Positions 24,161 to 34,986 of a stretch of 64,000 nucleotides of DNA are shown here, piece by piece. The position numbers were made by a program, and so were the translations under genes. Source of the stretch: a virus; IMG/VR virus record IMGVR_UViG_3300024999_000034, positions 32,001-96,000 of that record; one strand, written 5' to 3'. Each line of letters starts with the position of its first letter. Position 1 is the first letter of the stretch. A model generated the notes under the pieces. The model was not told where the DNA came from. It searched no databases and saw only the letters and a list, made by a program, of their open reading frames with translations.

Positions 24161-24499
24161 ACCATTTAGACTAGAAATAAAATTCTAGTCTTTTTCTATG
24201 TTCATTCAGCCGGATCAACTCATTTTCCCTTTTCAATCCTTCACATTCCCAAAACACTCCAACAGAAACGTCCCTTCTTGCCATCAGATTGCATTGCCCT
24301 TTATAATCTTGCCTAGCATCGATTTAAACGTCTCAGAATTAAAATAAGCATAATATACAATCAAATCTGGCTTATTAAGCGCAGATTAACTCCGATACAG
24401 TCATTAACTATATAATTACCAATCATTACCATACTATGAATCATATAGCATCATTAATATAAGTAATAGCATATAAATCAAAATATAATGTTTTAGGGG

Positions 24500-24528
24500 T
24501 TGACGGATTGCTGTTTAAGTATTAAAAT
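24500..24528 (+). promoter_or_regulatory. sigma-A promoter of structured leader
   Basis: TTGACG-17-TAAAAT. Confidence 0.7.
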
Positions 24529-24534
24529 AAAGAC

Positions 24535-24855
24535 AGTTAAACAATACATAAATAAAAACTTACTAGGAAGTAGTTAGTGAGTTAACCCCATAAAGTTTAC
24601 AGGTTTTCCAGTTTGACCTTTAAAAACTGAGGGATAGGACAATGGAGCAGATTGCCTACCTAAAAGCTCTTTGAAAACTGAATAAAGCGAACTAGCACCA
24701 TAAACCTTCAATACTACTTTTTGGATTGACGCTTGCGCTTATAAAAGCAAGTTGAAGGAGTGGGAAAGATGAAATACAAGCGCACGGAACGCCTTCAGCT
24801 AGTTAAATTGTCCCTTACAAAAACTTGCTCATCTTGTCTTAATTTCTGCTCTCTT
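24535..24855 (+). ncRNA. structured leader RNA with rRNA-type boxA
   Basis: Stems 24558-65/24575-82, 24609-14/24624-29, 24635-43/24651-58, 24690-96/24798-804, 24705-11/24752-58, 24732-36/24747-51; boxA-like GCTCTTTGAAAACTGAATA at 24666-24684. Confidence 0.65.
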
Positions 24856-24892
24856 AAAGTAAAAAATAAAATTAAGAAAGTGAGAAATAAAA

Positions 24893-25153
24893 ATGTCTGA
24901 AAATCAAAAAGAATCTATTTTAAAACTTGCTAAAGGTTCTTGGCAGCGTTCAATCCTCAGAGACTTATTATCTTATTCAGCCATAACAAATCCTATCAAA
25001 TCGCTTAAAGGTAACGCTAAATCTTATTCAAAACGTTATCAAGTATCATTTTTTGCGTTGCTTTTTAGAATCGAAAAAGCCGGATACACCATAACAGTCA
25101 AACCTGGCCCACTTGGTGGACAGTGGGGATCTACATACAGTTTATCAGTATAA
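24893..25153 (+). CDS. hypothetical protein, first ORF after leader
   Basis: 86 aa, basic. Confidence 0.65.
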   Translation: MSENQKESILKLAKGSWQRSILRDLLSYSAITNPIKSLKGNAKSYSKRYQVSFFALLFRIEKAGYTITVKPGPLGGQWGSTYSLSV

Positions 25154-25307
25154 AGTTAAAAATAATTATTCTAAACACTTTCAAAATAGAGAGTGGAAAT
25201 TAAGGCAAGAAAAAAGTATAATTGTAAGGGAATCAAAACTATCTTTTATCTCTTATTGCTTTTCTTGTTTTTATTTTTACCCTCTTAATTAAGAGGGGGA
25301 AAATAAA

Positions 25308-34004: not shown

Positions 34005-34402
34005 TTCCAACGAAATACGAATTTCTTGTGAAATGAAAGGAAGTTTTAAAATGGATAAATTGACATTAATGTGTAATAATTGCTATGAAGTAGTTGTGAA
34101 TTGTGGCGAAACTCCTATTGATTGTCCTCATTGTGGATCAATAGAAACATGGGTTTTAAAAATCCCTATGAAGGAGAGTGTTAGAAATGCTAAATAAATC
34201 AAAATTAACCAAACACCGCAAGTATATCAAGAAGCGTAAAAAAGTTTGGATTGCTTTATATGGATTGCCTTATCCGGTTAAACAAAATTATAGTCCTATT
34301 ACTTATCTATAGGTCAATCAATGCAGAGTGGTAGAGCGTAATAACAATCAACGCTCTATTAATGCACAGAGCAGGTCACAAGTCCTGCTCAGATGCTAAA
34401 TA

Positions 34403-34882: not shown

Positions 34883-34986
34883 ACCTTGCAGAAGACAACC
34901 GCAATATAACAATAACAATCATGCGGTTGTAATGCACCAGCGCACGTTCCAAGTCGTGGCAGGATGCTAAAGAGGAGGTTAAATAT

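Follow-up and report, generated by a model that had tools for sequence, protein, structure and literature searches.

An rRNA-operon-type boxA conserved within the mosaic leader of a long phage operon: a putative loading site for host Nus factors

The antitermination signal of rRNA (rrn) operons is composed of boxB, boxA and boxC, and in E. coli involves NusA, NusB, NusE, NusG, S4 and SuhB. In the nutL and nutR sites of phage lambda, boxA is followed by the boxB hairpin, to which the N protein binds. To our knowledge, the mechanism of processive transcription in phages of Gram-positive bacteria is poorly known, and our literature search found no paper on an rrn-type boxA in such phages. For phage T7, a boxA antitermination element is located behind the early host promoters A1-A3 (Savalia et al. 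2010, as cited in PMC3709561). boxA is also active at suhB and at CRISPR arrays (PMC5725501; Wade laboratory). In Tn916, the 452-nt element canT was identified as a processive antiterminator, the sufficient fragment being +126 to +577, and that paper makes no mention of boxA (PLoS Genet 2024, PMC11658703).

The phage sequence analysed here is an IMG/VR record of 180,838 bp (about 85% complete, about 29% G+C), of which bases 32001-96000, a stretch of 64,000 nucleotides, are hereafter referred to as the window. Genes in roughly the first 44 kb of the genome are on the minus strand, and those from 46.6 kb to the end are on the plus strand. The minus arm encodes a portal protein and a 941-aa protein matching the YonO-type single-subunit RNA polymerase (G000:C1:28335-31160, minus strand, 0.8-3.7 kb ahead of the window start). 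This YonO homologue showed 48.5% identity to a protein of Bacillus phage BUCT082, and also matched SPbeta-like phages, Enterocloster phages and the split YonO homologue of Clostridium phage c-st. From these matches the phage is SPbeta/c-st-like, and its host is presumably a low-GC Firmicute; it would be a temperate phage. The plus arm bears consensus sigma-A-type promoters, which, together with the location of the YonO-like polymerase on the other arm, suggests that the plus arm is read by the host polymerase. Phage-encoded NusG, NusB and S10 were looked for in this phage, and none was found.

The leader under study is predicted to be transcribed as an untranslated RNA of about 365 nt, between the promoter at 24500 and the first-gene ATG at 24893. 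Its features are listed in Table 1; the positions that an earlier note had assigned to leader elements were all right. The promoter was found where that note had placed it, and the positions of its two hexamers were conserved in relatives with a spacer that varies among them. Another promoter-like sequence, TTGCCA-18-TATAAT followed by CTTGCCTAGCATCGATTTAAACGTCTCAGAA, was observed at window positions 24278-24345; this stretch is conserved about 170-200 nt 5' of the leader promoter in three loci (L014, L082, L091), and no ORF explains it. Plasmid and phage collections contained no DNA matches to the leader, and exact searches of IMG/VR with its conserved 18-19-mers gave chance matches in coding regions only, save one true relative. 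An Rfam search had been proposed as a check for a known unrelated RNA family; at both gathering and permissive thresholds, no family was detected for the leader in the window, and none in 20 relatives.

Table 1. Features of the leader and its surroundings (window positions)
Feature	Position	Strand	Remarks
Last canonical intrinsic terminator among the upstream cassettes	24168..24199	+	Stem and T-tract
Sigma-A/sigma-70-type promoter TTGACG-17-TAAAAT	24500..24528	+	-35 and -10 positions kept in relatives
Invariant 5' island AAAGACAGTTAAACAATACA	24529..24548	+	Start-site region and first transcribed bases; single in genome
Leader hairpin 1, 8 bp	24559..24581	+	Compensatory changes
Leader hairpin 2, CAGTTT/AAACTG	24609..24629	+	CGATTT/AAATCG instead in 7-9 of 16 relatives
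boxB-like hairpin, loop GGAGCAG	24635..24658	+	7 nt 5' of boxA; stem covaries
rrn-type boxA GCUCUUUGAAAACUGAAUA, putative host NusB-S10 site	24666..24684	+	DNA form GCTCTTTGAAAACTGAATA
boxA variant named beside the canonical 19-mer			GUUCUUUCUCAACU
Closed multi-stem RNA domain	24690..24804	+	Nested AACTAGC/GCTAGTT, CACC/GGTG, CCTTCAA/TTGAAGG and inner hairpins
Conserved island 3 (AUUrUCCCUUACAAAAACUU; AUCCCUUACAAA)	24807..24826	+	Comparison of relatives
Invariant island 4 (CUUGUCUUAAUUUCUGCUCUCUUAA and hairpin partner)	24833..24892	+	Contains the hairpin sequestering the ribosome-binding site ahead of ATG 24893
Ribosome-binding-site hairpin	CUCUCUUAA 24849-57 / UUAAGAAAGUGAG 24872-84	+	Invariant in relatives; compensatory variant in L092
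First gene of the operon, 86-aa conserved protein	24893..25153	+	No Pfam or PHROG family
Four leader islands			(1) -10 and AAAGACAGTTAAACAATACA; (2) boxA; (3) AUCCCUUACAAA; (4) CUUGUCUUAAUUUCUGCUCUCUUAA and ribosome-binding-site hairpin partner

The boxA sequence GCTCTTTGAAAACTGAATA is present as a sole copy in the 180.8-kb genome, about 0.06 chance matches being expected at three or fewer mismatches, and is located on the sense strand about 130 nt 3' of the start site, with no credible ORF over it. The nature of this motif was examined by scanning the genomes of prokaryotes, each species represented once, with the pattern GYTCTTTGAAAACTRAAT, to which the phage boxA conforms at 18 of 18 positions. 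At least 120 stretches matched. Among the 122 matches listed, at least 64 adjoin 16S or 23S, 44 of them lying 35-250 nt 5' of the 16S start and 20 in the 16S-23S spacer (past the 16S 3' end) or ahead of 23S; for 21 further matches listed, the locus end is too close to judge the rrn context. The phyla represented among the matches listed include Firmicutes, Mycoplasmatota, Actinomycetota, Acidobacteriota, Bdellovibrionota, deltaproteobacteria, Spirochaetota, Endomicrobia and others. The A after RAAT was observed in 61 of the 64 rrn cases listed and in at least 90% of the phage leaders, where this position was not imposed. A 2026 paper reported the binding of B. subtilis NusB to the rrn boxA-like AUGAUCUUUGAAA (PMC13753749). 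The variant GAUCUUUGAAAACU is present in five phage leaders. The occurrence of rrn-adjoining matches across phyla and the binding by B. subtilis NusB together indicate that the phage motif is the rrn boxA in its general as opposed to its enterobacterial form, in agreement with the earlier assignment of 24666-84 to this class. Binding of NusB-S10 by the phage 19-mer would be expected by analogy, the precedent being B. subtilis NusB on the boxA-like RNA of its own rrn operons.

Homologous leaders were collected through the first gene, for which 24 homologue clusters, 53 metagenome loci and one IMG/VR relative were obtained, and conservation was counted for the 47 loci extending 400 nt or more upstream. 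Alignment of homologues had been set beforehand as a check by which the proposal could be refuted. boxA was found in the leader of 43 of these 47 loci, in the canonical form G-N-UCUUUGA-N-AA-Y-U for 40 and as the variant GUUYUUUCUCAACU for 3; this variant was also detected in 2 truncated loci outside the 47. The loci without boxA are three with a different leader and one with the gene inside another operon. The leaders span 262-494 nt and are mosaic, with four invariant or nearly invariant islands (Table 1). After anchoring at boxA, column identity was 0.91 over 18-19 nt, whereas the 40-nt flanks reached 0.46 and 0.49 and sort into at least 10 unrelated classes on the upstream side and at least 9 on the downstream side. 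Conservation covers a block of 19 nt, G-N-UCUUUGAAAACU-N-AAUA, in which UCUUU is invariant in 34 of 35 unique contexts and position 2 is C, U or A as in natural boxAs. In one IMG/VR locus (L014), the unit consisting of three hairpins and boxA stands ahead of a different gene. For the cultured relatives BUCT082, SPbetaL8, c-st and PMBT24, boxA matches were obtained only at one mismatch and at control frequency. The comparison makes it clear that boxA is under purifying selection within the mosaic leaders, and the refuting condition named in the note, a boxA that homologous leaders do not keep, did not arise.

The distribution of boxA among mobile elements was also analysed. The exact 17-mer GCTCTTTGAAAACTGAA was found in 51 IMG/VR stretches (L003-L053, 29-65% G+C) versus 1 for the reversed control. 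None of these sites is near a 16S end, and 28 of the 47 unique ones fall between genes, in many cases directly 3' of a G+C-rich hairpin and with a same-strand ORF within 40-330 nt. This enrichment bears on whether the motif is used as boxA at all, or is instead the site of another protein, a DNA-level signal or a recombination linker between leader modules. The striking mosaicism of the leaders, with four short invariant islands, would fit such a use, and conservation of islands as recombination joints is possible in principle. Such a use appears very improbable, however, as the motif agrees at 18-19 positions, the flanking G and AAUA among them, with the one fixed in rrn operons across many phyla, its pattern of variation is that of natural boxA variants, and the enrichment over the control extends to viral contigs of every GC content.

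Besides these viral sites, 14 of the genomic matches listed are located within Tn916-type elements, between orf8 and xis. One such boxA, GTTCTTTGAAAACTGAAT, was observed on the chromosome of Veillonella parvula in the sense of the Porf7 transcript (L143:6291-6308, plus strand), and the same context was found in L119, L123, L128, L133, L151, L153, L175, L183, L184, L186 and L214. The Tn916 boxA occupies +121 to +138 after the orf8 stop, i.e. the 5' edge of canT. As the sufficient canT fragment begins inside boxA, canT needs no intact boxA. The phage leader was also considered as a homologue of canT, and this was rejected because boxA alone aligns. The 51-to-1 excess and the Tn916 site suggest that capture of boxA by mobile elements is common and under-annotated.

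The RNA structure around boxA was then compared among relatives. For the three hairpins upstream (24559-81, 24609-29 and 24635-58), changes on both sides keep the pairing in 16 leaders of the window class: 98.9% of cells are paired against 24-50% for slid controls, 28 cells are changed on both sides, and none of 500 shuffles reached the covariation score. The compensatory variants of the hairpin preceding boxA are GGACAAT/ATTGCC, GGATAAT/ATTACC and GGATATT/AATACC. Likewise, for the nested stems at 24690-24804 in 10 leaders, 99.7% of cells are paired (29-44% for slid controls) with 5 pairs changed on both sides, and again 0 of 500 shuffles reached the score. Covariation thus supports the stems AACTAGC/GCTAGTT and CCTTCAA/TTGAAGG and the inner stems, as drawn in the earlier note. 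Two further proposals made there, a pseudoknot between the loop GGAGCAG and CTGCTCT and the alternative pairings GGACAAT/ATTGTCC and GCAAGTT/AACTTGC, correspond to complementarities present in this sequence, but were rejected as conserved features. Their 3' partners are invariant in all leader classes whatever the 5' module, even where the hairpin is absent, so that comparison gives no support to either proposal; in L066 and L076, GGACAAT is retained but faces ATTATCT and TTTATCC, respectively. The minimum free energy of the whole leader is unremarkable (z = -0.84), so stability alone is no evidence. As a separate observation, GGUUUUC at 24602-24608 is complementary to GAAAACU at 24673-24679, the 3' half of boxA, in 16 of 16 window-class leaders; pairing holds in 97% of cells, covariation is absent, and this complementarity could mask boxA or could arise by chance. 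The accessibility of boxA in predicted ensembles is uninformative, being close to average (0.53 versus a leader mean of 0.46).

In other leader classes, unrelated hairpins occupy the place of the 24635-24658 hairpin, and a hairpin directly 5' of boxA was predicted in most of these classes, not all (mean z = -1.0; 16 of 33 below -1). In almost all classes, the segment between boxA and island 3 folds back into a single closed domain (mean z = -1.8; 14 of 30 below -2). This domain, 64-262 nt long and closed by a long-range stem, differs from class to class (24690-24804 in the window; equivalents in L059-L111); it falls into at least nine unrelated classes and is missing in L079. The near-universal closure of this segment, together with the covariation in the window's class, raises the alternative of a structured antiterminator RNA as the active element, one that acts directly on RNA polymerase, as do HK022 put, EAR, pLS20 conAn2 and Tn916 canT, with boxA as an accessory or a passenger. 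The position of canT directly 3' of an identical boxA, the intactness of which it does not require, is in line with such an element. We regard this alternative as quite unlikely, since boxA is the constant part and the downstream domain is not, similarity to canT does not extend beyond boxA, and no Rfam family (EAR included if it is in Rfam) was detected in the window or in 20 relatives.

The transcriptional architecture changes at the leader. A scan for canonical terminators, defined as a hairpin plus a T-tract, detected 10-11 on the plus strand between 15.5 and 24.2 kb of the window; after the leader, the next on this strand is located only at 120.9-129.8 kb of the genome, leaving more than 64 kb free. 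In 27 relatives, 88 canonical terminators were found within 60.7 kb upstream of the leader versus 1 within 79.8 kb downstream. The leader is therefore a conserved boundary, and the architectural change noted earlier is real and conserved. Three relatives (L097, L098, L101) were observed to carry, some 430 nt ahead of the first-gene homologue, an alternative leader without boxA and the 5' island, and to keep the 3' islands and the terminator-free downstream layout; boxA is thus not indispensable for that architecture. Since intrinsic terminators are absent downstream, the leader is not needed for reading through them, and the effect of boxA would concern Rho, pausing, elongation rate or RNA folding. 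The downstream array is also rich in intergenic hairpins. Two intergenic Twister-P5 ribozymes were detected on the plus strand, at window positions 34322-34387 (57.1 bits) and 34887-34958 (46.8 bits; gathering score 37.6). In both, the long stem bears AUAACAA in its terminal loop, a feature that connects these ribozymes with the AUAACAA-loop hairpin array.

Comparison has already established the identity, conservation, strand and position of boxA, the RNA structure around it and the terminator switch. The explanation that we hold to be rather likely is that boxA serves as an N-independent, rrn-type loading site for host NusB/S10, which would make host RNA polymerase processive and Rho-resistant. 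Because boxA is kept in nearly all related phages, the phage probably borrows host Nus factors. The leader would be the 5' untranslated RNA of a long operon read by host RNA polymerase, with a single boxA in the rrn order, i.e. hairpin and then boxA. Host NusB-S10 would bind boxA upon its emergence from RNA polymerase, and NusG and NusA would then join. The polymerase would thereby come to elongate as part of an rrn-like antitermination complex, faster, resistant to pausing and protected from Rho, with RNA-chaperone activity as well. The transcript to be protected would consist of about 365 untranslated nt followed by structured intergenic RNAs, including the two twister ribozymes, over tens of kb, and no phage N-like protein would be required. 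Both the binding of Nus factors and its effect on elongation and termination are thus what we infer from the comparison. Counting against this explanation are the single boxA and the ribozymes, as their cleavage would cut the RNA tether after about 10 kb. The three relatives with the alternative leader, the cultured relatives with boxA matches at control frequency only, the activity of canT without an intact boxA, and the GGUUUUC segment that can pair with boxA count against it as well. Direct demonstration of rrn-type antitermination is lacking even for the rrn operons of B. subtilis, in which Rho is dispensable (PMC13753749).

The first gene and the 3' end of the leader were examined with respect to regulation. 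The first-gene protein is conserved at 72-100% in about 50 metagenome loci; its AlphaFold model gave a pLDDT of 81, and matches to winged-helix regulators were weak (E about 0.1). The product would at best be a small winged-helix protein, not an N-like peptide, and it may read the invariant promoter-proximal island. This island, AAAGACAGTTAAACAATACA, is a candidate operator, or a candidate 7-bp partner of UUGUCUU in island 4. The ribosome-binding site of the second gene is also sequestered, within a hairpin at 25271-25290 formed by the palindrome CCCUCUUAAUUAAGAGGG. The invariant hairpin that sequesters the ribosome-binding site at the 3' end of the leader, with its compensatory variant in L092, favours another role for boxA, in which Nus factors would be recruited for control and not for processivity: either suhB-like repression or Rho-dependent attenuation of the first genes, or chaperoning of the leader and the ribosome-binding-site hairpin so as to set translation of the first gene. 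Nus factors at the suhB boxA do repress expression (PMC5725501), and rrn complexes act as RNA chaperones (PMC8632103). Nevertheless, the distance between boxA and the start codon is 100-365 nt and variable, as compared with about 50 nt or less for suhB, and the conserved architecture, in which more than 60 kb of terminator-free genes follow the leader, sits badly with an element that represses. A control function of this kind is considered unlikely.

With processivity by rrn-type Nus loading as the preferred explanation, the retention of boxA as the constant part of a heavily recombined leader provides natural genetic evidence that this signal works in such hosts. Further evidence of this kind comes from its place where the insulation of cassettes by terminators gives way to an array without them. 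The unit is compact, consisting of the promoter and about 190 nt. The principle is already known from T7, lambda, rrn operons and CRISPR arrays. As a tentative extension, which we put forward as speculation, hairpin plus boxA may be a portable N-independent Nus-loading module, widespread in phages and conjugative elements of many phyla, including Tn916. In this lineage, the module might be what the host polymerase requires to reach the end of an array exceeding 60 kb, processed by ribozymes and stripped of all intrinsic terminators, and the interchangeable closed RNA domains might be functional cargo, such as sensors or processed small RNAs, and not filler.

The earlier note had concluded that the leader is a processive antitermination element using host Nus factors, comparable to lambda nut, HK022 put or pLS20 conAn. 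The first part of this proposal is supported by the rrn boxA on the transcribed strand, the host-type promoter, the selection on boxA and the switch in architecture; the analogy did not hold. Tn916 canT, HK022 put, EAR, and pLS20 conAn1 and conAn2 resemble the phage leader in being cis-acting leader RNAs, some 300-450 nt in length, that open a long operon in a Gram-positive mobile element. Unlike the phage leader, they act through specific folded RNAs, whereas here it is boxA that is conserved and not the folded part: a specific conserved fold, as in put, EAR, canT and conAn2, was not found, the leader having no Rfam match and its post-boxA domain being variable and missing in L079. With lambda nut the leader shares a boxA-bearing phage RNA near the start of an early operon and the recruitment, putative here, of host NusB/S10. 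It differs from nut in that the recurring hairpin is 5' of boxA, in the same order as in rrn, that intrinsic terminators are absent downstream, and that the first product looks like a small winged-helix protein and not like the arginine-rich N; no conserved boxB hairpin was found on the 3' side, where the flank is mosaic and belongs to at least nine unrelated classes. The boxA of CRISPR arrays and suhB likewise represents reuse of the rrn boxA outside rRNA, and controls Rho-dependent termination of poorly translated RNA. Those elements are chromosomal, enterobacterial and bench-tested, whereas the phage leader is known only as a sequence.

T7 is also a non-lambdoid phage with an N-independent boxA behind early host-polymerase promoters, the function being assigned here by analogy. 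T7 infects E. coli and carries the enterobacterial form of boxA; the present phage is of about 200 kb, SPbeta/c-st-like and presumably of Firmicutes, and its GAAAACU-type boxA lies within a mosaic structured leader. Unlike rrn leaders and spacers, the phage leader heads protein-coding genes, contains no conserved boxC, is followed by no second boxA, and has been characterized from its sequence alone. The two are alike in an identical boxA, including the flanking G and AAUA, in the hairpin just 5', in an untranslated RNA soon after a strong host promoter, and in the long, highly structured and partly untranslated RNA that follows. As essentially no intrinsic terminators are present downstream, the closest analogy is with the N-independent boxA of rrn operons, CRISPR arrays and T7, with anti-Rho and anti-pause activity and faster elongation as the effects to be expected.
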